Shown: positions 3,001-38,585 of the stretch, in pieces
How positions within the stretch are numbered: position 1 is the stretch's first letter
Layout of the letters: each line of letters begins with the position of its first letter
Assembly (NCBI GenBank): GCA_001244265.2
Contig: CDLV01000011.1
Location: 1,612,001-1,676,000 of the forward strand
DNA: 64,000 bases
Direction of reading: 5' to 3'
Source of the DNA: Microbotryum violaceum
Taxonomy: Eukaryota
The notes under the pieces: generated by a model
Told to the model about the DNA's origin: nothing
Databases searched by the model: none
What the model saw: only the letters and a program-made list of their open reading frames with translations
Position numbers and translations under genes: made by a program

Positions 3001-3565
3001 TCGGCCAGAATGTCGACGTGCGAATTCGAGAAGCGCCGAAGGAAGCGAGCGTCGGAAAGCGGGTCGTCACAAGGTCTTGCTGATCTGATGGGTCCCAAGA
3101 GCTCATCCCTCATCGTCACGACCTGTTCCGGATCCTTCGCTTCGACAAGGTAGTGCTGCTGGAAATGAGAATGGGTGTGCTCGAGCGTGCGCTCCATGTC
3201 AGTGGTGAGCTCGCCATCAGCGAGCCGGATACTCTGAAACTTCACATCGCGGGACCGAGCAGCCAATTTGGCATGTACCGGACGACTGAGACGTTCCTCG
3301 GATGCAATCTCGGGAACGTGCGCCCTGATCCGGGACTGCCTTGCTCGCTCGTTCACAAGCTTGGAGAGAGCGTCGTGGGTGTTCGTCCAGTCGATAATAT
3401 CGAAGGGGCTCAGCACCCGACGAGACTCAATGTCCTGCAGTCGAGATACCAGCATCATCTCGAGGGCGTTGCGCTCCCGAAACAGACGCCGAGACAGCTC
3501 GAGAGCTTGGACCCGAGACTCCGAGAGTACGCGCTGAAGGTCCGCGACCACTTTTTGACCACTCC
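1..3565 (-). mobile_element. Non-LTR retrotransposon (L1/Tx1-like LINE), family A, copy 1; 5'-truncated, 3' UTR runs off the window
   Basis: Minus-strand RT motifs [43 protein letters not shown]-terminal CCHC (C..C...H....C). Bases 1-1404 are the near-identical reverse complement of 29496-30900. 5' junction placed approximately where AT-rich flank begins (3560-3570). Confidence 0.93.
407..3565 (-). pseudogene. LINE ORF2 remnant (reverse transcriptase + zinc finger); endonuclease region lost by truncation
   Basis: ORFs 2139-3650 and 402-2099 are in the same frame, separated by TAG at 2139 where family B has Trp (LALDW). One-base G-run deletions near 885 and 645 relative to copy 2. Confidence 0.88.
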
Positions 3566-3624
3566 GGGCTACAAAAATAATAGAAATATATACGCAATAT
3601 GCCCTTCTGCACACAACCAAAGTT

Positions 3625-3713
3625 GGTTCTGTGGTGTAGTTGGTTATCACGTATCCTTAACAGGTGTCTGTCTGATTCGGATAAGGTCCCCGGTTCGATC
3701 CCGTGCAGAATCA
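3625..3713 (+). tRNA. tRNA-Val(AAC) with 15-nt intron (3663-3677)
   Basis: Cloverleaf: acceptor GGTTCTG/CAGAATC-A, anticodon stem TATCC/GGATA with loop TT-AAC-A[intron]C, T-loop TTCGATC; followed by T6. Confidence 0.93.
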
Positions 3714-3719
3714 TTTTTT
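3714..3719 (+). terminator. RNA polymerase III oligo-T terminator
   Basis: TTTTTT immediately after the tRNA discriminator base. Confidence 0.85.
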
Positions 3720-4053
3720 GCTTCTCGTGTCTTTCTTGTCTTCGTGGACTTTTTGCATGATGTTCAGTCCCATTTCTTTTGCATTGCTCTTTTTCCATTC
3801 GTCAGTAGTAAGATCCGTGCTTATAACTCGCTCTCGATCTCTAGATGGTCTCCGGCGCAAGTGAGGAGAGGTAGTATATCGTGAGTAATGCAAAGATGGG
3901 TATATGATTATAAGGGGACACCGCTGTTTCTGAGGAAGCACAACAAAGTAATATATTCTGAACGTAATGAGGAACGCAGACACTGTACAATAATGTACGC
4001 CACTTCTTTGACCGGCCCACCCCCTGCCCCCGCCCCTTGTGGCCGAATTTGTT

Positions 4054-7000
4054 TCAAACCGCTTCTTGATCGGACACGGGCCGGATCCACAACTTGCCCG
4101 GTCTCGACTTTTCTCTCAAGATCCTCCAAGCCGCCGGCTGCGGACTCGCGATCTTCTCCATCGCGACGCGACGGTGTTCGGTCGTTCCTTCGATCTCGAT
4201 CATGATCGTTCCGGCCCAGTCGGGGTGCACGACTTGAGGCTTCGGGGCCGAGATGTCGAGGATCGGGTCGTTTGCTCGGACTTGGATCGATGCACTAAAA
4301 GGTAATAGGAGGTCAGCAGTGTGTTCGAGGTTTCAAGGCCGAGAGGAAGAGGTGAACATACTGGTACATGAATCGCTTGACCATGTATCCACCCTGCGGT
4401 GATGTGACGTGGACTTTGTCCTCGCGCAGCATCAGACTCTCATGCGCCTGGGCGGTGAACTTTTGTAGCCACAAATCTGCGAACGGACAAGCGACGAGAT
4501 TTAGCGCTTGGCCGTAATCTACCAGGCGTCTACCGAGAAACTTACAGAACACGGGACTGGCTGTTGAAGCTGCGACGATGTTGTGGTAGTATTGAGGTGA
4601 GAACGACAGCATACCGAGCCAATTCTGTAATGGCAGTCGCTCAAAGTTCAGTCAGATGCAAGACATGCGGACGAGGGAGAGCGACTCACGGGCAGATGAC
4701 CAACTACGTCGTAACGATACTCAAAGTCGCGCAGGAACTTGCCATCAAAGATGAGCTTGCCGAGGTTGCCGAATGGTGCGATCGCGGTATTGACGACGAC
4801 GTCACCACGACGCATTTCACCCCACACACCCGAGCGCCAAATTTCGCGTTCGCATTCAACGACTTCGCTATCGGCCATCCAACTCGTTGTACCACTGAGG
4901 GGCACCCAAGTTCGCAGTGTCGGCGCTCGACCAGATCGGAAGACGACCGCCAGATTCTGCGCTACGATTTGGCCTTCGAATGCGTACGGCGCCCAGCACC
5001 CTCTGCCACCGTAGCCTTCGAGTTGCCAACGCAGCCGCAGCACAACACGATTCCATGCCCTGGTCGATGCCCTGATGCTCCTGAGCGTTGTGGCATGAAG
5101 GCGATCAAAGTTATAATCTTTGGCGAAACGCGCGTATTGCTCAATCTGGAGCTCGGTCGCGATGAGAAATGCATCGAGATCTCGCAGCGTCAAGACGATC
5201 GGTTCGGTCTTGGCGGATGGAGAAGGCGACGTCGGTGCCTTGTCGCTTCCAAGCGCATACGATCGGTATCCCCATGGCCCCAGGTACCGCTGCAATACGA
5301 TCTCCTTGGCGAGCGGTTCGTCCATACTGCGTCGAAGAGCACGAGACGTCGCTCGCAGCGCACAAAAGTCGGCATACTTTGTAACAGCCAGGATCCCACG
5401 CAGCACCTGCTCCGGGAATGCCGCAATCACCTTTTCCAACGTCGAATCACCCGGAGTGCAGATTTTCAGTCGTGGAGAGAGGGTAGGCGACGGCGAGCCA
5501 GCATCCGAATGCCCCGAGGACGAGGCATTGCGTTCTCTCGCGGCCGCCAACGCCTGGGCCCTCGTATTGTTCTGAGGTACGGATCGCACCGGTCCATCCG
5601 CAACGAACGGATCTTCGAGAACGGCTCTAGTCGATCTCCGCGTTCGTAAAGGAGGTAGAATCGTCGGCGTTGAAGGGGAACTCAGGGCGGGCCGTCGGCT
5701 CGGTGAGCCCTCTTCATAGCCAGGCTGTTTGAGCGGTCCATTAACGTGTTTGAGCGGTCCGTCCTGCTGAGCTCGAGCGCGACCTAGCGGTGAACTGTCC
5801 CTCGACCCAGTCGGACGTCGACCAGCTGCTTCGGGCGAGTTAATCGACAACTCTTGCAAGCGAGTCACATGCGAGTCCGCTCGGGGCCGGGCCATACCGC
5901 TCGTACTGATCGCGGAAAGGGGCTGTCCGTGGTGCGACTGGTCGTGCGACGAGATGGACGAAGTCCCAGCTTTGGTCGAGCTCGCGGTCGTATCTGGACT
6001 TCCGTGATCATTGCCCGATACTGTTGCAAACAGAGAGGGCGAAAGGCCGGGCGACGAAGGGCCTGTCCCACCGAGTAGAGAGTTCGACGAGTTTCGTGAC
6101 GGCGACGGAGACGCGCCATGAAAGTTGCCGGGAGAAGAGTTGTACGCCATCGACGCCGTCTGCGGCGGCGGCGGCGACGCAAGTGATGCAGGCGAAGCAG
6201 GAAGGTTCGCGTCAAAGTAGCTCGAAGGAGAGTCCGGGATGACGAGACCACTTGATACCGCATTGACGCTGAGCCGCTTCGGACTCGGCAGGGGAAGGAC
6301 GACTGGAGGACGAACTTTTGCCGAGTCAGCTCGGCATGCTCGCTTCGGCGCCTAACGTCCAGCGGGCTGGTACTCACAATTTCGTGTATCGATCATCAAG
6401 CTCTCCCGCCTTGGCGGCCGCGCTACAAAACCTGTGACACCTTCGCCATCGAAACGACCTCGTGCTTCAGAGTTCGCAGATAGAGGCGACGCCATGGGCG
6501 AGGCATACACCGAACTCCGCGGCGACGACACGATCGACATGCGAGCTTGAAACCCCCCCACATGCATAAACGCTCTAATCCAGTCAGCTTACCAGCCTCT
6601 CAATAGACAAATAATAGACCCTCCCACACCACAATCCTTCCTGATTGGACGAACAAGACTGACCTCGAGCCGAGTCCCTTTCATTGAACCTCGACTGGAT
6701 CGGCGGGCCCCGTGCGCCGATAGGACTAGTGCTGCTGCCCACCGCGCCAGCTGCAGCTTCCGTCGCCGCCGACAACGACGAGGGCGAAGCGGGAGCGACC
6801 GTCTCCTGCCGAGCTCCTTCCAAGGTCCTCTTCCACTTATGTGCATCCTCTCTACCGAAGTCGTCGACGCCCCAACTGGTTCGGATCGTAACTGTCGTTA
6901 GGGTTGGTCGGGAAGAAGGCGGCGGCCCGCTCGGGGTCCGTGTTGAGCCACTTGACGACGATGACGCTGAGCGTGGATCGTCCCCGGAGCGCGCCAGTCG

Positions 7001-7156
7001 AAGTGAGGTTGCCTTGAAAGGCATCGACGACGAGGAAGGGGGCATCGTCGCGTTCCGACAGCCAGTGTCGGTCGGAGACGACGACGACGAAGACGACAAC
7101 TTGGAGGATTTGGTGCCCCCTTTCCGACGTGTACTACCCATACCAAATAGACCCAT
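4054..7156 (-). CDS. Conserved basidiomycete protein: long Ser/Pro-rich N-terminus, F-box-like segment, conserved C-terminal domain (multi-exon)
   Basis: ATG at 7156 (MGLFGMG...). Exons link through GT-AG introns into ORF 4648-6150 (FPEQVLRGIL.., VECEREIWRSG..RRGDVV..GNLGKLIFDG). Last exon ends WRILREKSRPGKLWIRPVSDQEAV-TGA at 4054. Confidence 0.7.
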
Positions 7157-8069
7157 TGTAGACGTTGGGATTGGTGCCGAGCCACCCGCACGGCCGAGAG
7201 GGAAATCAAGGCCACCACTGCAGGGCAAACAATTCTAAGGTCGTGAGACGTGGGTCGGGAGGAAAGAAGTAGGGGTGCGGCAGCGGCGAAAAGAAACCCG
7301 ACAGCTCGGGCCCACTTTCAATCGAATGCTCCCAAGTCGAAAGACTCTACCTGAGTAGACCTTAAGCAGGAAGCCCAAGTTTGCCCAAGCGAGCGCCCAC
7401 TGCAAACGCGCGCGCGCTGTTTTGTTGATCGTCACGCCAGCCAGTTCCGGCCGCTTCGATCAAATTGCTTCTCCCAAGCGATCGATGCCAACGCAAATTA
7501 AATTGCAAGCGATCGCACTGTCGCCACGAGATCCAGACCCCTGTCTTGATTCGTTGCTCCTCGGAAAACCCATGCTATGAACCTGACTTGGTTAACAATC
7601 CCTCGTGCGGCTCAGTTGCCCAGGTGTCATGACACTTTGAGAGACGTCCGGACACAGGACGAGACCGTGCAAAATTTCGTACATTCGTCGCTTCGTTCAG
7701 CAGTTTTTCTTTTTCTGAACCGGTGAAAGAACAGGGCAGGATAAACAAAAGAAGAAGAAACGGCACAGCGCCCCCAATTAATATACGGAGATGAAAAGTG
7801 AAGTATGAGGTCATTCGAATTCGAACAAATGGAAGAAGGAACAGTGGGGGAAAAAGAGCAGGAAAGGAACCAGAGGCACAAAAAAGGACAACAGGGTCGT
7901 TAATCGTTGGTAGAGGTGTGACGAAGGAAGATCGCACGCCAAAGGAGCAGTCGTTTTGAGCGCGCAAAGGTCAAAGGAAAACAGAGGGGTCTGGATCGCC
8001 GTGAATGATGAAATTCGAAGTGAACAAAATGAGAACAGGACGAAGGATGATGGGCGAAAACAGGCGAGC

Positions 8070-10145
8070 TCAACCAAAGAGATACGGCGCGGCAGCGGTC
8101 TGTGTCAGGAGTGTGGGTTCGAACGTCAGCCAACGGGTCACTCAAACCAAAGGGAATGGCATGCGAAGAGCAAGAACTAACAGCACTGACGGCGAGAGCC
8201 AAGCCAAAGCCAGCGACCCATCGTCGACCCTCGGCCTCTTCCCTCTGCACCAAAGCGAGCTGCGCAGGCGCAGGTCGAATCTCCCTTCCAGCATTGACAG
8301 GCACGCGACGCCCACCGTTCGGTCTCCTCCTGAAGAGCTTGCCAAAGAAGCCTCGGTCGTCTCGCAGAGCATCGGCGAGGGTGCCCGTTTGCGGCAACTC
8401 GTCCTCGTCCTCCTCGTGTGTGCGCTTGGCGACGGATGAGGAAGGGATCGTGGTGTCTTGTGTCAACTTGGCCAGTGTACCCGAAGCCTTGAGGTCTTCG
8501 ACGAGCTGTTTGGCTTGGGCGATTTGCGCGGCGACGGCCTCGTCCGAAGCGACCAGGCCGTTCGACGAAGCCTCGGCCGCGTCCGAGACGGGCACATCGA
8601 CCTTGACTTCGGTCGTTTCCGTCGTCACGCCGGTCTTGGCATCGGTTGAAAGCGTTTGCAGGATTGAGACACCGTTCGCCGACGAGCCGGAGAGCGCCGA
8701 CTTGGGGGTAGGAGAGGCGGCGGTAGCACGGGGTGACTGCACACGTGCGCGTTTGGAGCGAGGGGAGCGAAGAGCGGGCGACTGCGGTATGAACAGGAGC
8801 AATATCTCTGGTCAGGACAACATGTTCTCCGCCCATGTCCTCGCCGAAGTTCGAGGACTCACGTCAGCTTCCGATTGATCGGCGGCTGCGTCGGATGTGG
8901 CGTTTTGCTCAGAACTGACGAAATTGACGAGGTCGGTCGCGAATTTAGTAAGTCCATACTCCTCAGCGAGCGCGAGGGCCTTGTCACACGGAATCCTGTT
9001 CGTGACCACCATCGTCAGCTCTTATTGACCGATTCCCAGAGCGACTCGGATGGACTGACCAGGTGCCACTGAGACGATGGGCCTCGTCGTCCTCGCGACC
9101 AGCGACCTTGGTGTTGCCGAATTGCCTGGGGTGAGCGACGATGTACTTCATCTCTGCGCTCTCGGCTGTGACGGATGCGGTCGGGAACGCGGCGCGGAAG
9201 AAGGACGAGGCAGAGATGGCATTGGTGTCGAAGCGTTTGATCAAATGGCTGTGAAGAGACGACGCGCCGAGAAGAGATGGTTCGTCAACAGACTGCCATC
9301 AGATCGAGATGGAGTGAGGCCACGACTGGGAGTCTGGGCACGGAGGTCCGAGTCGGTGTCAAAGTGCACGTGCAAGGGTTCGCGCGCTTGTGCCGGAGTG
9401 ATAGCCGTGGCGCGCAGGTAGGTTTGTTTACCCCGGTCCCGCCTCTGGCCCCCCCTGTGTTTTTGCGAAGACGGACGACAGCCCAACCAGGATAGCGACA
9501 CAGGCGAGTTCGTGATCCACCCGGTGTAATAAGGAATGACAAGGCTCGATGGGCTTGACAGTTTGACGCGTGTCGGATCGCGATGTAGCACGTGACACGG
9601 GCGATCACACCCCGGTCCGACTGCCCCCCCCCCCCCCCCCTTTCCGCGCCTTCGCCTTGACCAAACAAAACGCCGGTCCGGCTGGAGACTCACCCTGGGA
9701 CGCCCTTGGGCACGGGGCACTTGACCCTGGCGATGACGATGCTGTCGTTGGTCGGAGGTCCGAGATGGAGGGTCTGGGTCTTGACCTTGTGCAGCTTGGC
9801 CTTTGACTCGAGCAGGAGGTCGTTCTTGTCGCTCAAGGGGAGCGGGGGACGCGTCTTTGCGCTGGTCGAAACTGGCGACTTGGCCGAAGCGGGCGACTTG
9901 GCCTGACCGCTGGGCGTACCGGAAGCCGCCTTGGAGCGAGGCTTGGGGGACAGACCACGAACACTCGCGGACGAGGACGAGGAGGGCTTGCGTCCCGAGG
10001 CCGAGGGGGGTGCGAGCGTCGACGCGATCGAGGGCACAGGGGGAGGCGTCGATCCGGGCGACAGGGCTCGAGCGGTGGGCGTGCTCGCTCGACTCGAACG
10101 ACGTGGGGCCGGCGTCGCGGCGGACGAAGACGACTTTTGCGCCAT
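8070..10145 (-). CDS. bqt4: APSES/KilA-N domain protein with C-terminal transmembrane helix, Bqt4-like (nuclear envelope/telomere anchor)
   Basis: Spliced IKRFDTNAISASSFFRAAFP...LSGTW/IPCDKALALAEEYGL is an APSES fold. C-terminal hydrophobic WVAGFGLALAVSA..AAAPYLFG-stop. Confidence 0.72.
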
Positions 10146-10507
10146 CTTGGGTAGGATTGGGTTGGGTCGGGTTGTTGGGTCGATTGTAGTTGAGCTGAAT
10201 CGGGTGCGGCGATGAGAGGGGTGCGTGGAGTAGGGTAGGCACGTGAGTGTATTCGCCTGCAGAGGGTGTGGTGGGGTGGTGATGGAAGGCAGGCAACGCA
10301 GCGCAGCGCAGGAGGGCTGGGTGCACACTTGCGCACGCGCGCGAACTCACGCGAGCCTTATGGAAAGTGTAATTACCTCGTCTGTAATGGGTTTCCATTA
10401 GAGAGGCTTCTGACCGACCACCCGCCGTCCGCGATCGGCCTTTACTCTACGCCACTCCACTGTGCTGCCTCAGCTCACATGCTCACAGGCCTGTGCGACC
10501 ATACCCC

Positions 10508-11338
10508 ATGAAACCCGCTATCCGCCCCATTCTGCTCCTGGCCCTGAGCTCGGTCGTCGCCTATTCTTGGGCGACCAGTATTCCACAGCAACAACACCCC
10601 TTCGCACCCCCAACTGCCGGTGACAGCCACAGCCACAGCCACAGCCAACTTGGACCCGCAATGTCGATTCCCAAGACGAACCCGTTCCTCTCCTCAAGCA
10701 CCAACGCCGTCAGCTCCACGACGATGGCCCTAGCCGATCTCTTGACCCAATCCCGTCGCACCTCCATCTTCTACGACTACTGTCGCGACGTACCTTCCGT
10801 CTCAGCATTGTTGAATGCGCCACCGTCATCTTCCAAGGAGACTTTGCCGACTTTACTCGTCCCTCTCAATAGCGCCATCATCGCCATGGCTCACAAGCCT
10901 CATCAAACCCAACCTACGACCGATTCGAGGTTCCACCAGCTCCGAACCGAGCGCCAACTCGAGGACGAATCGAACGCGTATCTCTCTCGCTGGGTACGGG
11001 CCCATGTCATCCCGGCAGAGGTGGAGATGGGTTCGGAGGGGTGGCAAGACAAGACATACGAGACGTTGGATCACTCGAGCGTACAGTTCGCACTTCGTAA
11101 AGATGAGACCACGAACGAGGAACGTGTCGTCATTATGCCGGGTCAGATTGAGGTCGTCGGAATGAGTCAGGTACGTTTCTTGCTTGGTCAGAGCCCGACC
11201 CGGCAAAAGGAGGCCAACGTACGAGCCGCTATCGTCATTCTGACATCCGAATATGCTCTCAAACACAGGCCAGCAATGGTATGATTTATTACATCGACGG
11301 AACGCTCAACCTTGGTTCCGTATAGGCACCAGACTTGA
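10508..11338 (+). CDS. Secreted FAS1 (fasciclin) domain protein
   Basis: Signal peptide MKPAIRPILLLALSSVVAYS. TLLVPLNSAI, AHVIP and, after one intron, ASNGMIYYIDGTL are the FAS1 H1/H2 motifs. Confidence 0.8.
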
Positions 11339-11740
11339 CCCCCCGCCCCTTTGTACTTGTGTGGTCCTATCATGTTGATACTTTCGTCCCTATCAGTGCT
11401 GTAATCGTTCCCTCGCGTGTGTTGTCATGTCTTACCCTCGAAGGCTGGAGATTGTTATCTCGAGTCCGCTGAACGAGTCAGAAAGGATTGAAAATGACGG
11501 GTTGTTACAATTAAAGCATTGCGACGGCTACACCCAGGGCGGGAAAGCCAGGAGGATTAGGACGCGGGGTTTCCGAGCTACTGATGAATATACTACAAGG
11601 TATAGAGGTATAGAAGACCAAGATTGTCTAGAGAAGATAAAAAGGACGTGGAAAGATAGATCAACACCGGAATCCATCGACCAGCGAGATGACCACGAAC
11701 GAGTCTTTTCCCCCCTTCAACTTAGGCCCAAGCGAAAACC

Positions 11741-14700: not shown

Positions 14701-14811
14701 CGGGCTGCCCGCGGCCGCACCCACGGAAGCGGTGGCCAAGTCCCCTGTCGGCGCACCCGTTGCCGAGCCGAGCGCCAAAACGAGAAGGGAGAGGGTCGAA
14801 ACAGCACGCAT
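11741..14811 (-). CDS. Large secreted protein: three Cys-rich repeats, Thr/Ser-rich stalk, C-terminal polysaccharide-lyase/ConA-like domain (multi-exon)
   Basis: Signal peptide MRAVSTLSLLVLALGSATG. Repeats CRKDxY..GxCIKCTT.D..A.TC....LTC..G....CV. C-terminus RQRVEM..YKWRSF..FFHLWQL..KFGLYR. Lyase call is by motif resemblance only. Confidence 0.65.
13225..13320. repeat. 18-bp coding tandem repeat (GACGTGGTGGAGAGGGTC) x~5, encoding STTSTL
   Basis: Directly visible in the sequence. Confidence 0.9.
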
Positions 14812-17042
14812 CGCCAGGACGTGTGATGGGGAGCTGTAACGGGAGAATGATTAGTTGAAGAAGAGTGAGGGAGAAAGGAAGAGCGAGAGGGGACAGGAAA
14901 TAATCGATGAGGGGGGGGGGGTGGGGGGGTTGTTCAGGATAATATCCGAACCTGGTTCGCGGAGGTATCTTCATTGAGCGACGAAGGCAGATTCATTCGG
15001 TCGAGCCGATCACCGTCGGCTTTCTCCCGTCGAGTGCCGCATGGACCACTTCCATCCAGGGCCCACCCACCCCAGCGCGATTCCTCCGGGGCCATCGAAT
15101 ATGTCGATGTCGGCTCGGCACTCTGCGCCCGCCCAGAACTTCGCGCAGGCCCGCCCCGTTTGAGGCCTAGTCGAGCCGGGGCGCCTCCGGATTTGGAAAC
15201 TGGTGATCGATCCCCCGCGCATGGCACTCGCTTGGACGAAGGCCGGGCAGCGTATTCTTCGCCATGTGTGGGCTAGTTACGTTTGACCAGGTAATTGCTT
15301 CCATGGGTCTTCGCTGGACCGAAATACATTGTTTCACCGCTGGCGCCCTGAATGACCACTTTTTTTTCCTTGTCGTTGCCGGCGCGGGACGCCAGCACAG
15401 CTCCAGCCGGTGATGGTAAAGCCTTGCGCTGTTCCTTTAGAACCTTTGGTGCCTAGATCAAGCTTCAAGGGCTCAGGGTAGCGATGCACGGGTAATTGAA
15501 GGCGTTAGGCCGTAGAGGCGTGCATGAAGGTGTGTGAGGCACCTGTGTCAATGTAGGCTTTGATGCCATCTTCCCCGTTCACGGACACTTCCACCATGAA
15601 AGCATCGGGGAACAGACCGACAACATCGGCCGTGTTGTCGATTTTTCCTGCGGTGGGCTTTTTGCCTCTGACTTTGCCTTTGCCTTTGCCTTTGCCTTTG
15701 CTCTTGCCTTGGCGCTGTCACTTTTCGGCAGGGAAAGACTCCTGAGCGAAACGCACGGGCTGGGCGCGTGTGCGTAAAGGGCGAGATTCGGCATCTGTGA
15801 TGTCCGTGCGTCGTATCTCGGGCCCTTGGAGGTAAGCGTAGAGATCGGAGGAGAACTCGATTCTGCGCAGCTCCGGAAGCTTCGAGGTAGGTAACTTCAC
15901 GATGGGGGTGTCTGTCATCAGACTCGTATTGGCGCGAAAGCCGGTCTGGGACGACGTTGTGTTCGCCTTTGACATAACCCCAAACCCCACCATCGTTGGT
16001 CATGGCGCAGCACTTCGCGTGATCCACTGGCTACGCGATCGCTTTTGGTGGCCTACACTCAGCAAGGATGTGGACAGCTACTACCGCACTTGCCCCTCTT
16101 GCCAAGCATGCAAACCGAGCACGCAAAGCCCGATGGGATACCTACACTCGATGGCCATACCGTCGAAACCTTACGAAGAGATTGCGATGGATTTCCAAGG
16201 TCCCTTTCTGACGGCTACAAGCCACCTGGGGCCCGTCGATGCACTGTTCAATGTGATCGACGTCCTCACCGGGGAAGTCATCATGCTCCCATGCGACTTC
16301 ACAGGTCTGACCGCCGAAAAATGCGCAGATCTTTATTTCACATTCGTGTTCCCCCACTGGGGAATACCGAACGTCATCACGTCTGATCGCGATGTCCGTT
16401 GGACGTCAGACTTTTGGCGAACCCTACACGCCGCCCTCGGCACGACGCTCGCAATGTCGTCCGCGTACCATCCGCAAACCAACGGAAAAATTGAGCGCAT
16501 CCATCGTGACATCAACGCGCTGATGCGCCAACTCGTCAGTGAAGAACAAACAGACTGGCCCAGCCACATCCCATTCGTACAGTTCACACTGAACAACGCA
16601 CTGAACAAATCGTCCGGGTTTTCCGCTTTCGAGATATCGAGGATCCGCACACCTGAAACGATCCCGAGCTGGGTGCGAGCAACGAGCGAGCACCCCGCGG
16701 ACGTTTTTATCGCAAATGCGCAACTCAAGCTTGAGAAAGCCCAGGACAGCCTCATCAAGGCGCAAACTCGGGCAGGCCCTCAGCGCCAACGAGCACCGCC
16801 GCGCAGCCATCGACCCGATGGTGCCATCTGGACCCCAAATCGGGGATGCGCCAGACCGGCCCGCGGCTCTGCGCCCGCAGCCATTGAAGTTTTGGGTGAC
16901 CACGCAGAATTGGCCCACGGTGCCCTTTCGCAGCCGCAAGTGGGCGCCCAAATTCGCGGGCCCGTTCGACGTGCTTGCCTTTGACCCTACGACTTCAACG
17001 TACACCCTCGACCTTCCAGCGAGGTACACAAAACGTAGGATT

Positions 17043-17384: not shown

Positions 17385-17490
17385 ATCAAAATCGCTGTGT
17401 CGGCTCCCGATGGAGTCGACCGAGTTTGAGCGGCGGTTGCTCGTGTCGCGCGCGGTGGTGCGCGAAAGACGCTGCGAAGCGTCTCCTTCC

Positions 17491-17696
17491 GCGGCGAGGT
17501 GTTCCTTCGAGGGCGGCACAGACATACTGGATGTGTGAGCGGTGAGAACAAAAATTTTCCGAGGTTGATCAGACCTGGGACGACGAGGGTTAAGCGGCGA
17601 GGTGTTCCTTCGAGGGCGGCACAGACATACTGGATGTGTGAGCGGCGAGAACAAAAATTTTCCGAGGTTGATCAGACCTGGGACGACGAGGGTTAA
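17491..17696. repeat. 103-bp tandem duplication
   Basis: 17491-17593 and 17594-17696 differ at one base. Confidence 0.92.
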
Positions 17697-19282
17697 GTAA
17701 TTCTGGTAACGAGGGTTATGACGAGGGGTTCGAGGGGGGTTCGAGGGGTTTTTTGGGCCTAAGAAGACGCAATCCGAAAGCCTGCGAAGGGGTAGCTAAT
17801 CCCTTGCAAGTACTTCCGGTACCTAAGTAGATATCCGAACGGGACACTGCGTACGATGCAGATGTCTAGGCCAGATAAGCACAAATGCAAATCGACGGTG
17901 GACCGTGCAACAACAAGAGTTGAAGCGTCAAAAAAAGATGTAAGGGCCAGACGCAATTCGAAATTGCGAAGCGGCGATCACAGGGCGAAGTCGACGAGCG
18001 ACGAAGAAAAGACGGTGAAACGCTTGAATTGTATTGCAGGGGATAATGCAACTACGGTCGATAGATAATGTGTGTACGAGATTGATCGGTAACTAGGCGA
18101 GGGGTTGAGTCCAGTTCACGATGAGTAAGAGACCAAGAAACAATTTGTAAGCTATCCGGGCGTAAGGCCATCTTGCGCGCGGATTCGAACTTGGAAGGCT
18201 TGACGTTGAGGTCGGAACGAGACGGCGACCTTACAGCCCGCGCCGAAGCCTTCCCGACTGGGGTCGGACATTCTCTTCGCTCGTCGACCAGAGGATTTTC
18301 GCGCTCTGCGTTCCCTCCGAGCGCTCCTCTGTACCTATCTCGTCCCTCGACTCGACTCGTTGGCACGATTGTGGCTTCTAAGACCTGTTCAGGATTCTTC
18401 TGCTGACTCGTCGGCAGAGGCGCAAACCACTTCGAAGTCGACTTCGGGTCGGGGCTGGCAGGGCCAGGCATGCGGACTTTTGAGCGCGGTAGCAAACAGG
18501 AATATGACCAGGCAGTCTCGGCCAAGGGTCTGCTATTTCTGGAGCCTCGAAGGGGTGCTCGATCACCCCAACCACCACACCGTCAAGACCATGTACCGCG
18601 AGCGGGATCGCCCGCGGCTATGAGGCTCGGTTCGCTGATCGAGATCGCCAGCGGGGCCGGTCCTTGTCTTTTCAGCCACCTCGGCCCACAACGTCCCCTA
18701 AAAGGCGCAGCTCTGATGCATCTGATGCGTCGCGGTTACTCGTGCGTCCCCGCAATTATCCCGAAACGCTCGAACTGAATGCGACGATGATGCAGGGTAC
18801 TTTGTCTGTATTTTTGCGGGAGATAACAGTAGTGGGTACATTTCGGAAGTTAATTTTTATCTGCCATCAGATTGTCTGCTTCACAGCAGTTCATGCACGT
18901 GCACTCGGGAGTCCGCCGAGTCGATCTTGTGTCGTCGACCACGGTCACGTGATCTCTCTGCCATGGTCGAAGGCTTGAGGCTTCGAGGGGAGGGGGGGTA
19001 CCAGAAGAAATATGTGCTCTCTTGCGAGCCGACACTCTAGTAAGGAGTCTGCAACCAGACGGTCCGCGAGTGCCCTGAAGATTTTTGAAAAGGGAAATCG
19101 GGCTAGCCTGGCAAGTACTCCGAGGGTTTGGAGCTGAAGCTGGCCGAGTGCTGGCTGGCGCCGCCGCCGCAGGTTGACGCCGCACGCCGTCCTCGACTGG
19201 AGTGATACGCCGTCTCCTGGCTTCCCATAGGCCCAATATCCTGCCAAACTCGAGGCCTAACTTTGGACACGGTGATTCTACT

Positions 19283-20531: not shown

Positions 20532-20629
20532 TGAAATATTCTCATCCATCTCCTTCTATTTGCAATACATCCTTTGTTGCTCCATTCTCCGCTCAGTTTA
20601 CCCCTCCCACGCTGTTCCCCCATACGCGT

Positions 20630-21934: not shown

Positions 21935-22651
21935 TTTGGACCACTGTGCAGAGAGCAAGAGATATCCAAATAGTTCAGAAACAATTTTTCCATGACGGGG
22001 TGAGATTGAGCGCAAGATCGGCCGTGGAGTTCTGCTGATCGTGATCCGGCGTTGGCCGCGATCTTTGCGGGCGTACCGATGCGACGGCCATCGTGCGTGC
22101 CAGTGCAACGTCGAGAGACTACCACAAGCAGATCGAGGCATCCCTGACAAGGAACAGTAGAGTATCAGAAGTGTTTGACTCACGAGACTGGGTGGCCGGA
22201 TGTGGGGTGGGGGAAAGGGAGCAACGAGCGTTGCTTGCTTTCGCTTGCTCGCGGCCGTGCTCTCGAGATTGAGCTTGGACCTCCACTCGCCGGTGCTCGT
22301 TGAAACTCACGGCGATCGAGCAAGTTCGTGGGATATTTAATTGCCACCGGAAGCAAGATCGAAGCGCATTACGATCCTGTTCGTGGACAGCCAGGATCTT
22401 TTCTGAGCCTAATTCAGTCTGAAACTTTGCTATTCTTCCCTAGCTATAAACCTTCAGAGTGCGACAAGGTTTTCGCGCGCACCGCGGCGAGTTGGTCATT
22501 GCTAGTCAACATTGCAGAGGTTATAATATCGGTCCGATTCGCTACGCTCATAAATAATGATAACAATAAGATAAAAACAGGTCCATGGATTTGGAGCGGG
22601 GGTAGCCTAGGTCAAAACACCTCCTTCTTCGCTGGAAAAATTAATTTCGTC

Positions 22652-24315
22652 CTAAGCCTGCCTAACCAGCCCATGTTGCTTATCAAGCTCGTCAACAAAC
22701 GTGTACGTCTTCCTCTGCCTCGCGTTGCCTTCATCGGTGATGGTCTCGTGCGTCTTACCGACGGTGCTGACGATCCATCGATGCCATTCGGGTAAAGAGC
22801 GGAGAGAGGGCAAGAGGACCCGAGCGAATCCAGGGGTCACGAGGTGGTCCGATAAACCCGATTCGAGGATCGAGACCATTTTGTGCGCGAGCCACGTCGC
22901 GGACAATGTCGGGGTCATGCTATTGCAAGGTATTGTAATGTCAGGGCCTTTTGTTCAGACTTTGCGCCAAAAGCTCTTGTCCACTAAGGGGCTCACAACT
23001 GGTTGTCTTGCTCCTTCATCGCATCTCCCATCTGAGTCGAGACTTTGGTCGGGCAAACGACCGAGGTGCGCACTCGTGGGGCGTTGTATCGGTGCTTGAG
23101 CTCGCCAATCAATACCTCATGCAAAGCCAAAGCCGCGGCCTTGGAGCAAGCGTACTCGCTCAACTGCGGGATCGCAGCGTACGACGCCGACGAGGCGGTC
23201 GTCATGATGTGACCATGGTTGACCTTGATGATGTGGGGGAGGAATTCGCGCAGGATGTTGTGGCATCCGAGTACGTTGACCTTGTAGGTCAAGAGGAACT
23301 GCTCCGGGGTCGTATCAAGGATGGTGTTGCCTCGTGCGATTCCGGCATTGTTGATCTGAAGAGATTTCCATCTCGCAGCTCACTCGGGGTCAGTCTCCGA
23401 TATTGCGAATAACAGGCTAAGCCGGGTAAGGATCACTCACAATGTACGTAGGGTGCCCAACCTAGTGTACCGAGTTTACAATATAAAAGTGGTCAGGATC
23501 TGAAGCCCATGATCAATTGCGCACGTACAACTGACCTTGGCTCGCACATCCTCGGCGATCTTGTGAATCGCTGCTGGGTCGGTGACGTCGCACTTGTAAT
23601 AATGAACGCCAGCTATCTCGTGAAGGCAGAAGAATTACCACGGACCGAGTCAGCTGCTGAAGCAAAGGAGGCCTTTTAATGAAGAAGAATAAACACACAA
23701 GCCTTGTAGGTTGGTGCGGCCATGTCCAATACGACGATCTTGTTGGTCTTCTTGGCCAAGAGCTCCACGATCTCCTTCCCGATTCCGGTCGAGCCACCGG
23801 TGATGAGTACGACGTCGCCTTCGTCCTTGATACGACTCCAGCGCGGCGGGTCTGCCTTCCAACCGTTATTCCTCACCAATCGAACCAGCACCCGGTTCGT
23901 CGATTTCAAAGCGACGAACGAAAGGAGTACGGTCAACCAGCGGTGCGCTAGGATATGGTCGGTGAATCGGAGTTGGGGTCCGAAGATCTGTCGAGCGCGG
24001 TAGAATGAGACGACGGCGATGATGATTGACGCTGGGACCGAGCATGGGAAGATGTCCAGCACCGAAGCGATACTGCAGGACGTAGTTGGTGTCAGCTTCC
24101 TCTGTTTTGGAGGCAATTGCAAGACGTGGCCCCTCTCGCTAGCGCAGGTAGGCTGGTGCCCAGTGACCTGCCCCGGCGCCATCTGGGGGCGCGGGGTTAA
24201 ATCGCCGTGATGCGAACGCCGGCAACGAACCGAGCAGCGGCTGAAGACAGGACAAGACAGAACAGACTCACTCGTCGATGCTGATGGATCTGCCGTGCTT
24301 CATCAATCCAAACAT
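22652..24315 (-). CDS. Short-chain dehydrogenase/reductase (retinol dehydrogenase-like), multi-exon
   Basis: VLITGGSTGIG, INNAG, HIMTTASS, YACSK (YxxxK), VCP. Confidence 0.9.
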
Positions 24316-25456
24316 GATGGTGGATGTAGGCGTTGTCGAAAGAGTGAAGGGGTAATGTGCAAAGGAGCGGTGAATGGAAGAAGAGAAGAACTTGAAGGTC
24401 GTAAGCTGCTTGCTACCCCAGTTGAAGATGGGGAGTCAGGAGCGTCACCGAGCCGTGATGTGCGGGGTTTTGCCGCTGAAAAGAAAAGAGGCGACCGGAG
24501 CGCGCGAGGCAAGTGCAGGGAGCGGTTATGTCATAGGCTTGGGGAGGTGTTGAAAACTCAGGAAACGTCAGTCGGTTTTGGGGTATGGTGCGCCATGTTG
24601 ATCGGCGTACTACTCGCATAGCGCCCCGGCGCGAGTCCTACTGCCAAAACCATGCAAAGGTAGCCGGGCTAAGGTAGCCGGGCCGTCCAGCGACACCGTG
24701 CGCGCGCCGCCCTCCGAGGAGACGACGGTTGAGCCGGGGGATGATCCGATGGAGACTTGTACAGCCGTCGAGTCAATTGTTTGGGTAGAGTCTCGCGCTT
24801 GTTGTTCGGATACGCTAACCATTTGGTCAGTGAGAGCAGTCGACGCGTTCCGACGCGCGCACCACTACAATCTGTCTGGCTGGGTCACGTGAACCTCTGC
24901 TCTCAGGTCGCGCCCGCCTGAGGTCGGAGTGTGCAGGGTTGGTGGCAGGTGCCTCAAGTTCAGGTCCAAACGATCTCGAGAGATTTGCCCGAGAACTCGA
25001 TCCATGCTGGGTAAAACGTTCTCGGCGATTAGGCAGGATTTCACTTTTAGTGCGTTCGCTAACATCCTCAGGGGTTCGGGGGCCCGGCCGTGCTCGCTCC
25101 GAATGTCGGTCCCGACTCGGATCGGAGTTCGTCTCAGAGTAGGTGACAAATTCCCCAGGCGAGAATCCTCAGGCTTCTCGTCATATTTGACAGGTTTGAG
25201 ATCATTCCCAGTACAAGCGTAGCAGATTGAGTCGAACGTCGCTACTACTAAAGACTCTGCCGAGCATGACTGAGAACCTCTTCGACAAATCCGACGGTCT
25301 ACTATTAGTAACTGAGGACGCATGTCGTGCGCTCAGCTTCCCTCCGCCACCTTCGCACCCAGAAACGACCAGCCTATCCGTGGACGCATCTCAACCGCCT
25401 CCACAACATCGAAGACACCGTAGGATCAAAGCTCAAAGCAGTAGACACCACCAAGC

Positions 25457-26198
25457 ATGGCATCCCGAACTCCCGCACGCAACACGCTGGCAGCCTTGCC
25501 CCGCTCGCTTCGCATCGCGCCGTCGACGCCGATCACGCGAACGCATCTGCTCGCGCTGTACAAGGAACAACTGCGCGTCGCTTCCTCTTTTGGGTCGTAC
25601 AACTTCCGACAGTACTTCTTGCGTCGTACGCGTGACAAGTTCCGTTCCGAGTTGCCGAGTCTGCTCGATGCGGCGTACAATCCCTCGGCGATCGCTTCGG
25701 GTTCGAGCGCGGCTTCGTCCTCGTCTTCTACGTCGGCTGCTTCAACGAGTGCCTCGACAAACTCGTCCGCAAAAGCTACGAACCCCGTTGAAGCCACCAG
25801 TGAGGACAACTCGATCTACGCCCCGACAAGAACGGAAGCTTCGGCTGCGTCGTCGTCGTCTTCCACAACGACGACGCCCGAGACTCGCCTGAGGGAATGG
25901 TACGCCGAAACTTTGTCGGACCTGGCCGTCATGGCGCGAGCGGCGATCGTGAATGGCCTGTACGAGGCACCCAAGTTGGTCATTGAAGGGAGGGCCAAGA
26001 TGATGGTGACGGGTGGTGGTGGAGCAGGAGCCGACGCGAGGTGAGTCCCGACTCAAGCTGCGTCTCACTTCTGACGTTTTTCTGCTAGGAAGGGCACACT
26101 CCGTGCTGATACTTGTTTGATCTTGGGTTTCTAGCTACGGTGGAGGTGGACAACCTGCAAATGGTCAGGAAGGAGTTGCAGCTACGCCAGCGCAGTAG
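25457..26198 (+). CDS. ISD11: LYR-motif protein ISD11/LYRM4 (cysteine desulfurase partner)
   Basis: LYKEQLRVASSFGSYNFRQYFLRRTRDKFR ... LAVMARAAIVNGLYEAPKLVIE; one intron near the 3' end. Confidence 0.82.
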
Positions 26199-26542
26199 TA
26201 CGTCGTCACGTCACGCTTTTCGGACTCTTTGTGGCTCCCATCATAGAACGAGCTAGAGTTTGTCTGATAGTTGTTGCAACAATGGTATAAGCAAGTAACA
26301 ACCCGCCGCCTGTGGAGTCCCTGAGAGTCGGTTATGGCCTACGACAGAGTGCCCGAGGTTGGGAACGTTGCGTCGGGGTGTGGCCGCCGTTGGGTGCGGT
26401 GATGACAAATATCCGGCCTGCGATCGTGCGACTCCGGCGCGATGGCGAAGCGCCACATGAGGCAGCACGACGCTCCCTCGGCTTACCCCTGGCCCGCTTT
26501 ACCTTCCTACCTCCATCCCCCTCTCACCCCCGTAACTTTTTT

Positions 26543-27890
26543 AGTGAGCACAACACACCGCCTAAGACCTCAGGAACGCCAGGCTGACATGACGTTCTCT
26601 TGCAGTGCTCAAGCATTTCAAAGGCCTCTTCGCCGCTGCGACCGTCCACGCCTACACCGGACCGACTTTACCGACCGCGATCCAATCCCAACGCTCCCTA
26701 TCGACCATGTCTAGTTCCGAGACGGCCATCTTTGCCAATGGATGTGAGTTGATATCCCAACATTCTACGTGTGGGGCTGGAAGGGACAACTCCTTGCTTT
26801 AGCGGCTTCTACTACCCCACACGTTGGCCCCGATGACGTGAGCTTATGCGGATCGGCTCAAACACATCGGTCTTTTTTTGACTTGTCTGCAGGCTTCTGG
26901 GGAACAGAGGTGAGAAACAATACCAATCAGCGCGGAACTCGTCTATACGACGATGCTGTCACGCAGATTTGAATATTTGACTCCGGCTGCACCCGTTACT
27001 AACGCTTTTCGGACGTGGTTACGTTCCTACGCTCCCTGCAGCACATGTTCCGCAAGCACTTTATCGGTCAAGGCCTCAAGGATGCCAAAGTAGGATATAT
27101 TGGTGGCAAGACCTCGGTAGGTCGAGATGGACATCTGCAGAAACGCGTCTACCGTCCGCGCACTGAAACCGCCAAGCTAAAACTTTGCTTCTTTTCCTCG
27201 CCACACAAGAACCCGAGTTACCGCGAGGTGTGCTCGGGATCGACGCAACATGCTGAGGCGGTCAAGTTAGAGTACGTACCACCATCGAAGATCACAAGGG
27301 GATTTGATTGATCGCGATGCTGAACTTTTTTGAACCTCTCATCATCTCGTGCGTGTCGCATCGCAGATTCGACCCCTCGCAATTGTCGTACGCGACCCTC
27401 GTCGAGTTCCACTACCGCATGCATGATCCCAGTAAGTCGGAGGTAGTATAAGTGAAGTCGTTATTCACGGTGAAGTCAGGCTGAACCTTTCCCTTCTTTC
27501 ACCCTACAGCCCAGGTCGATCGCCAAGGTCCTGATCGTGGAACACAGTATCGATCGGCGATCTTCACCACTTCGGACGAACAAGCCGAGATCGCGAAAAA
27601 GGTGACCAAAGAGGTACAGGAAGCACATTTCCCGAATGACAAGGTCGCTACCAAGGTGAAGACGAATTCACTTCCTGCTGATTGCGTCCGGCGAAGGCTG
27701 ACAAAGTACTGCTGCTTTTAGATCGAGCCCGCCGGTCAATGGTGGGATGCCGAGACTTACCACCAAGAGTGTACGTCGACGCCTCTGAACGGATTGGCAA
27801 GCGACGAGAGCTCACTCCTCGTTTCTTTTCTTAGACCTTGACAACAACCCGGGAGGTTACGAGTGCCCGACGCACCGACTTCACTGGTAG
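26543..27890 (+). CDS. msrA: Peptide methionine sulfoxide reductase A (multi-exon)
   Basis: Spliced GCFWG, VGYIGG, NPSYREVCSGSTQHAE, RQGPDRGTQYRSAIF, AETYHQ.YL. Internal ATG at 26707; an upstream start would be formed by splicing. Confidence 0.92.
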
Positions 27891-28204
27891 AAACGATTAT
27901 AATATATTCTACTCTTTTGCTTTGATTTGACTCTCTCTGTCGTGTAGCCATTTGGAATGAAGATATGAAGCTTTCCATTATCGTTTCGCGAGACGAGTCT
28001 GAGGAAATTCGTTGTGAATATTTGGTTACTTCGGTAACTCTTCTTGTCCTCAGGTCCGCCCAACTGCTTCTCCAAATCCAAGACAAAAAAGTACGGATTG
28101 CAGTGTTGTAACAGTAATCACGTGCGAGATGAATGTGCGCTCGGACACCCTCCATTCGGAACAACAATCAAGATTCTTCAATTCTTCCTTCTCCAACTCA
28201 AAGC

Positions 28205-28999
28205 CTAAGCCGCGTTCGTCTCGGCCTGTACTTGTTGTTCGTATTGCTTTGGTGTAAGTGTTCGCTTTTGGAGGTAATGAAATCCATCACAGAGGTGATA
28301 TCAGCATTCGAGACCGTCTGAAACTCGAAACTTTAACCCGAAGCGACTGACCTGGGTGAAGGCGTGCAGTTCCGCGATAGCCGATTTGAGCTTCTCGTTG
28401 ACTGGGATTCGATCGGCGGGAAGGAGTTGACATTCCCCGGTATTGGTCAGTTCTCGTATGCTTGATAGCCCGTTCGTCTTGAGGGGTGCGATGTTGGGCG
28501 TGGAGATGACGTACCTTCGCGATGCCGTTTCAAGGTCGTCTTGCCTTCGAACGAAGCGCACACGATAAGGACTTCATATGACTGTAGACGGGGTTAAAAC
28601 CGAAGAGTGACCAGTGATTCAAACCGTTCTTGGGGAGAGCAGGGGAGAAGTTTCATGTCAGTACCTACAGCTCCGCAACCGCCTGCTCGTGCGATTCCCG
28701 GGGTTCACCATGGAACAGAGGATTGGAACGTCAGCTCTGATGGAAGCAGACCATTTGGTGAGTGAATTGGTTGAGCCAGCTACAACGCACCTGAGATATC
28801 CCAGACTTTCTATGACAGCTCAAGTCGCAGTTTCGGCGATCGTACAGCATAAGAGGACGGGTTAGCTCAAAGTCGAGACCCGGTACTTTACCCGAAGGAA
28901 ACTCGCTGGAGGTCCCCTTATGGAAGTACGTACAATGTGCGTTGCATCAGGGTACGACGCCTCGAGCGATGCCCGTAATGAAGTTTCGTCCACCGGCAT
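28205..28999 (-). CDS. BolA-family protein (Bol2/Fra2-like), multi-exon with microexons
   Basis: Spliced MPVDETSLRASLEASYPDATHI-KVWDISG-GCGA-SYEVLIVCASFEGKTTLKRHRE-VNEKLKSAIAELHAFTQ-RTLTPKQY. Confidence 0.85.
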
Positions 29000-29330
29000 A
29001 GTACCCACGAGGTTGAGAGAGGGGTAGAGAGTTTGAGAGCTAAGTAAGACGTCCGGAGGGGGAACTGGGAGCAACTACTAAGCTCGATTAGTAATCGCTT
29101 GTTCGCGCCCGAATTCACGTTTTGGCGCCTCGTCGTCATCCTTGTGCACAGGTCAGGAAACACTTTGAAGAAGCGCAGCGGCCTGCCCAGTCCCAGCCGG
29201 ATCGGGCTGATTGCCGATGTGATTTTGCGCCGCTTTCAACGGAGAAAAAGGAAAGCAATTCGAACGGCTAGAGTCCGAATGGCTGACCATGTAACGGTGT
29301 GCTTGCCATGATCTGAACGTCGCTGATGCC

Positions 29331-29337
29331 AAAAAAA
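29331..29337 (-). terminator. RNA polymerase III oligo-T terminator
   Basis: T7 on the minus strand directly after the tRNA. Confidence 0.85.
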
Positions 29338-29428
29338 TGATTCTGCACGGGATCGAACCGGGGACCTTATCCGAATCAGACGAGAAGATCTGTTAAGGAT
29401 ACGTGATAACCAACTACACCACAGAACC
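29338..29428 (-). tRNA. tRNA-Val(AAC) with 17-nt intron
   Basis: Mature sequence identical to 3625-3713; different intron (GATCTTCTCGTCTGATT) and different flanks. Confidence 0.93.
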
Positions 29429-29491
29429 GTGGTTCAATAACATCAAGGTCATGTTTGGCAACATTATAATCATTGTTTTTGTGGTTCAGCG

Positions 29492-31893
29492 GGGTGTTCT
29501 CGGAGCAGGATAAGCGTTTGGCGAAGCTTTTCAGTTTCGAACGCACCATCGCTGACATCTATGCGCGAGCCGAATACCCCGCAGCTCCAACGGTGCCCTG
29601 GACCCCTGAGAAGCATCCCCAAGGCGACGGCTCGGAGCTGTCCAACCTGTGGCAATGGAAGCGCGATCAAGTCCAGGCGTGGATCCAGGTCGCAGGCGAT
29701 CGCTTCATCCCGCCGCTTCCGCCTCCTGTTCCCGTCCTCGCACGTCGACCACCCGTCATTCGTGTCGTTGGAGCACCTGGAGCCCGGGCCGGCGGTCCCC
29801 TCGAGCACATCTTGCCCAGAGCGACTCCGGTCGGCATGCCTGATCAAAGACTTCCTCTCCCCTCCGCCCCCTTGCTTGCTAATCAGTGGAGAATGTTGAG
29901 CTTGGACAGACCTTACACCATTGCGCGACTTCGACGCGTCATCAACCATCGACGTTTCGACGACACACAACGCCCTGGATCACTCGCCACACCCAAAGAA
30001 AGGCGACTCTTCTGGGGGTGGTTCCACACCGGGCCCGCCACGGCCCGCGAGCGCGAGGTGCACTTCAAGCTGGCGTACCACTTCACGCCAACGCGGAAGC
30101 GCCAGTTTGTGCAGCGGCATGGCGACTCGGCCTGCTGCCTTGTGCAGGCATGCAGCCTGGCAGGGGTGGAGGATGACTTTACTCACTTTTGGCATGATTG
30201 CCCTGACTCTTCTCAATTTTGGCAAGCAGCTAGGTCCATTATCTGCGACGCGCTGGGGGTCGTGTCGATCCTCGACCTCGACTACACGGCACTTCAGATC
30301 GAGCACGGCCTCCCTCGACTGCGCGCTCGCCTTCCGACGTCGAAAAAGCGTCCAATCCGCGCCTTCATTGCGCTGGCGCTCGACACTCTCAGCAACCGAC
30401 GCTGGGATCTCCATCGCCACGCCAGAGCGATGTCGAGCATGGACAAGGAGATGGCGGGACTGAAGGAGAGGTTGGAGCTCAGATTGGCGCGATGAAGTAG
30501 ATGTCCCTCCCTCCCTATCCAAGCAAAAACCAAACCCCAAAAAATCACAAGTCCCTTTTCCCTCCTTCTCAATCTCCAAAATGTCTCCCAAACACGCCAG
30601 AATACTGAACCTGTTTTCTCTCGCTCTTTTTGCCATTCCTCCTCATAGGCTTCCGTACTCCCCAGGAGCCTCGGGTTCTTTGCGCCGGCGGGCATTGTCG
30701 CCCTTGGTTCGAGCTTCTGCCACATCACGATGACACACAGCGAAAACGGATCCCCTTGGCCCTCTCCTGGACTATATCGTGAGTTTTCCACTCCTCTCAA
30801 GGGCCGGGTCTGTCTTCTCTTTCGGTCGAGCGACCCCGTGATCTCCTGTTCAAGGCCGGCACAAACTGCCTGCGTGGCTCGCCTCTCCTTGCTTTGCTGC
30901 TCGCTCGGAGTCGCGGCCCCGCGGCGGGTGACTCGGGTACCGAACCGCCATACACATCCACACTCGAGCGAGGTCCCACCCAATGACATCACCGTCGTGG
31001 GCCTCATGCTCCTTCTTTCCCCAGTATCTGCGGTGATTGGGAACCACCTGCACGTACAAGGGGACTCGAGTGTGCGTTCCGAGATTGGGAGTACGCCGCA
31101 GGGAAGCGAGGCCCCTGCGGAAGGTATACCCCGCCCTTGTCTCCAGCCGCGCGCCGGTGTTGACGGCCACCCGCCCGCGCTGCACCCGACCGAGGCGTGT
31201 CCAATGGACTGTCACATGCTCCGTGACTTTCCCCGGAAATCTCTGGATTGTGTGTTTTTGTGCGAAGTAGGCCTGTTTCGCAGTTGCAGTCATTGGAATG
31301 GGGGTGATCTGGGGTCGTGCGGTCGCGAGGGGGGCCGACTTTGGTAACCGAAAAGGGGTTTGGAATCCGCGGTGGAGATCCAGCGCAGACGGGTACAAGG
31401 GGTATGTGATTGCTGCGGTCGCAGGGGGTTACATTCCCCTTTGGACCACGTGAATCATTTGGATTGAGCGGGATGTTTGTGCCATCGGAGGCCTTGTTCG
31501 ACGCGTCTCAAAGAATTAAGGGGCTTCAAGGAGTATGGCGGTCTCAGGGGGGGCTGAAGTCAAAAGATCGAAGAAGGTTCAACTGTACGACTATAATCGG
31601 ATTCGCCTGTACAACACATGTACCATCACCAACGACTCATCCATCTTTTCCCGATTCCTTGTGTATAATCTTCAACCTTCCTTTCATTCGTCTCTGGGAG
31701 GGAGCAACCGTGGGTGGGGGGACTTGAACTCGGATGTATCGGGTTGGTCTGTTCTGCTAGTTACAACGCATCAAGCGGCGGTTGTGGTCATCATCGTGCA
31801 TGCTGGGTAGCATCTCCTTTAGTTCCGTAGGGGGTTTTCTCGTCTTGCAAATTAGCGATGAGTTTCATACAAAAAAAAAAAAAAAAAAAAAAA
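29492..31893 (+). mobile_element. LINE family A, copy 2; heavily 5'-truncated; ORF2 C-terminus (to 30495), ~1.37-kb 3' UTR, poly(A) 31871-31893
   Basis: Near-identical to reverse complement of 1-1404; open frame through the CCHC motif; A23 tail. Confidence 0.92.
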
Positions 31894-33881: not shown

Positions 33882-33910
33882 GATAGATACTGGAAAAGGC
33901 TACTTCATCT

Positions 33911-38585
<4,675 letters not shown>

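Follow-up and report, generated by a model that had tools for sequence, protein, structure and literature searches.

Does a long interspersed nuclear element (LINE) of a basidiomycete fungus choose its insertion sites by the transfer RNA (tRNA) genes beside them? The question is raised by a 64,000-nucleotide stretch of the Microbotryum violaceum genome (contig CDLV01000011.1, positions 1,612,001 to 1,676,000 of the forward strand), hereafter the window, in which two copies of one LINE family, here called family A, lie a few tens of base pairs upstream of two tRNA-Val(AAC) genes. A comparable arrangement is reported from Dictyostelium, where the element TRE5-A always integrates with its 5' end toward the 5' end of the tRNA gene, 44–48 bp upstream of it in an assay (PMC5391098); a review table gives 40–54 bp upstream of tRNA genes for TRE5 (PMC5911963). 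For a real, TRE5-A-like preference of family A for DNA upstream of tRNA genes, we judge the case to be evenly balanced.

Two LINE insertions upstream of tRNA-Val genes

Both family A copies in the window (2/2) were located upstream of its only two detected tRNA genes, and at both loci (2/2) the 5' end of the LINE pointed toward the 5' end of the tRNA gene, in a head-to-head arrangement. The gaps were 55 bp (or 76 bp) and 63 bp. The six features that make up the two loci are listed below, with offsets counted from the tRNA 5' end (APE, apurinic/apyrimidinic endonuclease; ORF, open reading frame).

1..3569, minus strand: LINE family A copy 1, 5'-truncated just past the APE domain, with its 3' end beyond the window edge.
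3570..3624, plus strand: spacer 1, 55 bp, 69% AT, with ACAAAAATAATAG at 3571-3583 (-54..-42) and then the TATA-like AAATATATA.
3625-3713, plus strand: tRNA-Val(AAC) gene 1, with exon 1 at 3625-3662, a 15-nt intron at 3663-3677, exon 2 at 3678-3713 and a T-run terminator after it.
29338-29428, minus strand: tRNA-Val(AAC) gene 2, with a 17-nt intron at 29374-29390, the same exons as gene 1 and a T-run terminator after it.
29429..29491, minus strand: spacer 2, 63 bp, 63% AT, with ACAAAAACAATGA at 29470-29482 (-54..-42) and then the TATA-like TTATAAT.
29492..31893, plus strand: LINE family A copy 2, 5'-truncated, with the C-terminal part of ORF2 up to ~30495 and, after it, a long 3' region that closes with A23 (31871-31893).

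A chance estimate was made by assuming uniform placement and random orientation of a copy and a 30-bp zone upstream of either tRNA gene, which gave a probability of ~5e-4 per copy. Two such placements in one window are far beyond chance within the window.

Using ARAGORN, we identified exactly two tRNA genes in the 64-kb window (3624-3714 on the plus strand and 29338-29428 on the minus strand), and the intron mode gave the same pair; both tRNA genes are occupied, as the original prediction had claimed. Both genes were labelled Leu(taa) by the program, because the intron was folded as a long variable arm. A script then cut out the introns (15 nt and 17 nt, at the canonical 37/38 position), and on the resulting sequences ARAGORN called tRNA-Val(aac) for both. 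By eye, each gene has an anticodon stem TATCC/GGATA and a loop TTAACA, followed by the intron at the canonical 37/38 position. The Rfam tRNA model scored 43 bits on 3625-3713 in evalue mode, in which gene 1 and two sub-threshold chance matches were the only hits of the whole window. The Rfam run of the window at the gathering score gave no matches and missed both tRNA genes, and gene 2 was reported in neither mode. The two genes have identical exons and differ in their introns (15 vs 17 nt). The T stems of both genes were also seen by eye to have a common C50-U64 mismatch.

Family A and the ends of its two copies

Family A is an APE-type non-LTR (long terminal repeat) retrotransposon, and both window copies are 5'-truncated. 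The frame of copy 1 spans ~1050 codons; a single in-frame TAG interrupts it at 2139-2141, and there are frameshifts toward the C-terminus. A domain search found RVT_1 in copy 1 at 7.6e-20. The window LINE proteins are 99% identical to gene models of M. silenes-dioicae. A fused full-length model of a sister species (P0002, 1949 aa, 99% identical) has the layout of ORF1 with a Cys/His motif, then APE, reverse transcriptase (RT) and a C-terminal zinc-binding region; copy 1 starts at its residue 903 and copy 2 at its residue 1615. The APE part is absent from both window copies, which are 5'-truncated, and the class assignment is drawn from related models that contain Exo_endo_phos, RVT_1 and zf-RVT together (P0018, P0012, P0080). 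A further model that is 84% identical to copy 1 (P0006) carries a precomputed PF03372. The best sequence match of the family A RT in the PDB was human L1 ORF2p (8.7e-10), followed by R2-type proteins at 5e-8, an order that reflects match scores rather than a tree. Of the hallmarks of target-primed reverse transcription (TPRT), family A shows an A23 tail, two different 5' truncation points and no LTRs.

The boundaries of the two copies determine the distances to the tRNA genes. For copy 1, homology to P0002 in tblastn was secure from 3548. The match can be extended by eye to 3569 through A-x-S-G codons, with 7/8 determined bases and a small 9-for-6-nt replacement between, so the 5' end of copy 1 probably lies at 3569. 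The gap to tRNA gene 1 is then 55 bp, whereas the strict boundary of 3548 would make it 76 bp; the predicted end at ~3560-3570 is acceptable. For copy 2, comparison of the window with itself aligned 1-1408 of copy 1 with 30900-29492 (98.9% identity over 1410 bp). We also aligned Logan contigs of four sequencing runs to 28000-34000 and considered the longest pieces of each run. In 4/4 runs, a high-depth collapsed LINE contig continued past 29492 into the sequence that precedes this point in longer copies; therefore, 29492 is a true truncation point. The predicted start at ~29492 and the 63-bp gap to the 5' end of tRNA gene 2 at 29428 were thereby upheld.

The same contigs gave some information on the family as a whole. 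In three DNA runs, the contig word depth over the LINE was 18–40 times that of flanking contigs; this depth, which is not a copy number, suggests that family A has many copies. In run X1, the LINE-A sequence of one contig stops at 30534 and gives way to A20, and therefore some family A copies end ~40 bp past ORF2, without the 1.4-kb 3' region. No joints skipping the LINE at copy 2 were found in the four runs (28000-34000), hence no empty site or polymorphism, a result that is informative neither way. In another run (X21), three joints between 28264 and 28934 skip 87–124 nt with CT..AC ends and resemble spliced introns of a minus-strand gene. Run X21 looks like RNA, and its high-depth LINE-A contigs hint that family A is transcribed.

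Independence of the two insertions

The two family A insertions are independent events. Their truncation points are ~2.16 kb apart (1408 and 3569 in copy-1 coordinates), the spacers match at 12/41 positions outside the shared motif described below (-41..-1), and the flanks downstream of the two tRNA genes match at 24/80. Because 98.9% identical LINE copies stand beside unrelated spacers, the loci are not a duplicated block; and because the LINE copies are far more alike than the spacer DNA, the LINEs must have arrived after the tRNA loci had diverged. The original prediction had made the same case from the truncation points, the introns and the flanks, and it withstood these comparisons. Duplication of a single tRNA and LINE block followed by divergence, or a repeat-induced assembly artefact, might be suspected from the identical tRNA exons and the near-identical LINE copies, and none of the longest contigs bridged tRNA gene 2, its spacer and the LINE. 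The unrelated spacers between near-identical repeats, the different intron lengths and the distance between the truncation points speak against duplication, and the continuous unique sequence across each junction in the window speaks against an artefact, so that we regard either as very improbable.

Two further arrangements were considered and rejected. A tRNA retrocopy or template-switch chimera was ruled out by the introns, the T-run terminators, the antisense placement and the spacer between tRNA and LINE. Insertion of the tRNA gene within a LINE was ruled out by tblastn with P0002, in which no ORF1 or APE sequence was found beyond either tRNA gene.

A proposed model of tRNA-directed insertion

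In each spacer, a TATA-like box was seen by eye ~30–40 bp before the mature tRNA 5' end, between the end of the LINE and the tRNA gene, and the LINE ends 15–25 bp beyond it. TFIIIB covers roughly the region of this box upstream of tRNA genes in promoters of RNA polymerase III (Pol III).

The explanation that we favour, and to which we give an even chance as a whole, takes family A to be a young, multi-copy LINE of Microbotryum. The two copies would be the products of independent TPRT events, both directed to the place on a tRNA gene where the Pol III initiation complex has its upstream edge. The target would lie ~15–25 bp beyond the TATA-like box and 55–63 bp from the mature tRNA 5' end, and in both cases the element would have come to face the tRNA gene with its 5' end, as in Dictyostelium TRE5-A. 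The Pol III machinery (TFIIIB and TFIIIC at the A and B boxes) may set position and orientation, probably with a protein of the element as the go-between, and the preference would be expected to hold family-wide across the genome. The more specific proposal, that Microbotryum has a LINE with TRE5-A-like, Pol III-guided, head-to-head integration ~55–63 bp upstream of tRNA genes which evolved independently of the dictyostelids, is advanced tentatively, at somewhat below an even chance.

LINE family B

A second LINE family in the window, family B, bears on how this explanation is weighed. Its three pieces are as follows.

31894..32138, plus strand: LINE-B 3' tail fragment, oriented like copy 2 and adjoining its poly(A).
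53815-54126, plus strand: short LINE-B relic.
60075-63390 (approximate), minus strand: LINE-B copy of 3.3 kb, 5'-truncated, with an RT 63–66% identical to that of family A.

The tail fragment consists of ~215 bp (31894-32110) followed by A9, TCTACC, A10, C and A11 up to 32138, and is 89% identical to the tail of the 3.3-kb copy. We considered it as a third independent tRNA-directed event and rejected this, since insertion of B into the poly(A) of A explains it equally well.

Evidence against the model and alternative explanations

A number of observations weigh against tRNA-directed insertion. The evidence consists of n=2 events only, both at the same isoacceptor, tRNA-Val(AAC), and the n=2 statistics lose weight because the window was chosen as striking in a very large scan. 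At copy 2, no target-site duplication of more than 2 bp was readable. Neither the 3.3-kb LINE-B copy nor the LINE-B relic has a tRNA gene (ARAGORN and Rfam) or any other Rfam match near it within the window. The spacers themselves share a 13-nt motif, ACAAAAAYAATRR, at exactly -54..-42 (10/13 match between ACAAAAATAATAG and ACAAAAACAATGA), and since the motif lies at the same offset in both, the target could be a DNA motif and not the Pol III complex. Both spacers are also AT-rich islands (69% and 63% AT, compared with 45% for the window), being 2 of the 29 such islands (>=65% AT) counted in the window. Another of these islands, 63394-63461, is the 5' flank of the large, tRNA-less LINE-B copy.

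Outside the window, sister-species junctions were read from gene models whose N-termini start upstream of truncated family A copies (n=3), and these likewise did not favour the model. One (P0003) starts with a translated LINE-B tail and a short A-run, and family A begins at residue 714. In another (P0099), a copia pol is followed by an A-rich stretch ('NKKTKKTKN') and then family A from residue 1274, and in the third (P0137), 19 residues of AT-rich codons precede family A from residue 1283. Thus, at least 2/3 of the family A 5' junctions in sister species adjoin A-rich tracts or other transposable elements (TEs). These junctions fit LINE stacking; the elements could have piled up at a targeted site, or they could have entered poly(A) tails. 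No antisense tRNA-Val peptide was found in 142 proteins by tblastn against the tRNA and spacer regions. A second protein search, for lengths of 260–830 aa, yielded few family A proteins, the ORFs of the window not among them. The tblastn matches were noise, except for 'MMNVFY' (P0003, P0136) and one stretch of P0009, both of which match the LINE-B tail.

More distant relatives pointed the same way. A 12-sequence alignment was used to scan metagenome contigs and contigs of GTDB and metagenome-assembled genomes (MAGs), yielding seven metagenome and two MAG loci. ARAGORN found a tRNA gene at 0/9 of these loci. Two of them (L001 and L002), for which Rfam in evalue mode also reported no tRNA, are the only informative ones of the nine: they are 5'-truncated with the upstream flank present, and they are 66–71% identical to a Sporobolomyces phaffii model. 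The other 7/9 loci were distant (26–35%) or short. There is no sign of a tRNA habit at the evolutionary distance of these Sporobolomyces-like loci. Of the original prediction of a tRNA-targeted family, two independent head-to-head insertions in the TRE5-A orientation stand, and the sister-species junctions and the other LINE-B pieces do not all fit a strict rule.

Many of these observations would be accommodated if the LINE endonuclease preferred an AT-rich tract or a motif that happens to lie upstream of tRNA-Val(AAC), the association with tRNA genes being a by-product in which Pol III has no part. The 13-nt motif lies right beside both junctions, both spacers are AT-rich islands in a window of 55% GC, the tRNA-less LINE-B copy adjoins another island, and the 5' ends of family A and of related elements in the sister species adjoin A-rich tracts. 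Moreover, poly(A) tracts are the reported target of Zorro3, an L1-type element of a fungus (PMC7175516). The strand is at odds with this explanation: on the LINE sense strand, both family A copies have T5GT instead of an A-run in their 5' flanks, and a T5 run at the 5' junction is on the wrong strand and at the wrong end for priming of TPRT. With 29 AT-rich islands available, striking both tRNA spacers in one orientation would have a probability of ~1e-3. Two matches to the motif pattern were counted in the window against 0.24 expected, a circular count since the pattern was built from the same two sites, and the window holds no further family A copies on which to check it. We regard purely DNA-directed insertion as unlikely, while counting it as the main alternative.

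Coincidence combined with retention would need neither a motif nor Pol III. Under this explanation, insertion is wide, copies survive in the tolerant intergenic DNA before tRNA genes, and the window was singled out among very many. The window is indeed rich in TEs (a copia element, a gypsy integrase fragment and a Helitron fragment besides the LINEs), LINE-B copies and sister-species family A copies occur in non-tRNA contexts, and a large scan may be expected to bring a look-elsewhere effect. Retention leaves unexplained the shared orientation and the agreement of the distances to within 8 bp (21 bp on the strict boundary), and the probability per copy comes to 1.6e-3 when tolerance is restricted to a third of the window. 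We therefore consider coincidence improbable.

Comparison with known systems

If insertion is tRNA-directed, the closest likeness of family A is to TRE5-A, which from published descriptions is likewise an APE-type poly(A) LINE, often 5'-truncated, inserted a few tens of base pairs upstream with its 5' end toward the tRNA gene. The two differ in that family A has a basidiomycete host, lies at 55–63 bp rather than 40–54 bp, and has so far been seen at tRNA-Val(AAC) alone. We assume that the likeness is due to convergence.

Among fungal elements, Zorro3 of Candida albicans is described as an L1-type LINE that targets poly(A) tracts (PMC7175516), and like family A it is an APE/RT LINE with a zinc-finger ORF1. 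A Zorro3-like trait is visible in Microbotryum, as the LINE ends in gene models and the B tail behind copy 2 adjoin A-rich tracts. In contrast to Zorro3, the 5' flanks at the tRNA-side junctions of family A are free of A-runs on the LINE sense strand. Poly(A) tracts were not present on both flanks; on the 3' side of copy 2, the LINE-B tail hides the flank. The yeast elements Ty1 and Ty3 and other fungal LTR elements are also listed as landing upstream of tRNA genes (PMC5911963). Ty1 and Ty3 are integrase-based LTR elements, whereas family A has no LTR and bears signatures of TPRT.

Other features of the window and of related gene models

The remaining TEs of the window are the following.

15842-16981: gypsy-type integrase fragment.
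33911-38586, minus strand: copia-type LTR retrotransposon whose 281-bp LTRs are 100% identical and whose gag-pol frame of 1391 codons has no interruption.
59041-60024, minus strand: fragment with a Helitron helicase-like N-terminal domain (2.1e-30), adjoining the 3' end of the LINE-B copy.

From its LTRs and open frame, the copia-type element seems to have inserted very recently and may be active. A 104-bp unit is present in two direct copies (99% identity, 17491-17697) in or beside the gypsy-type integrase fragment. The ordinary genes of the window include those for mitochondrial L2 ribosomal protein, mitofilin, Bot1p and an RA-domain protein.

Gene models in which TEs are fused were noted in the sister species (P0003, P0136, P0009, P0099, P0019, P0054 and P0055). 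In these models, a LINE-B tail is read as the start-codon region, or a copia pol is joined to a LINE ORF2. The protein annotation of the sister-species genomes thus contains chimeric TE models.

Significance

L1-clade elements have been recorded in M. violaceum before (Hood 2005, as cited in a review, PMC3956500). The M. lychnidis-dioicae genome paper counts 134 tRNAs and 392 LINE copies, and the passages that give these numbers draw no connection between them. In the literature that we searched, tRNA-gene targeting is described for non-LTR elements in dictyostelids only, and in fungi for LTR elements that use an integrase. The tRNA-targeted non-LTR elements in the table of a 2018 review are TRE5, TRE3, NLTR-A and NLTR-B, all of them dictyostelid (PMC5911963). 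No tRNA-gene-targeted non-LTR element in fungi was found in the full texts searched, which covered few subscription journals and no supplements.

If the proposed habit is real, family A would be the first non-LTR retrotransposon of a fungus to be described as targeting tRNA genes, and Pol III-guided TPRT would have originated a second time, independently. The host system can be cultured and crossed, so that the way in which a LINE ribonucleoprotein reads the Pol III complex would become approachable. The finding would also be relevant to how TEs are annotated in Microbotryum, which serves as a model of mating-type chromosome degeneration, and would allow one to ask whether compact or selfing genomes repeatedly select for targeting of safe havens.

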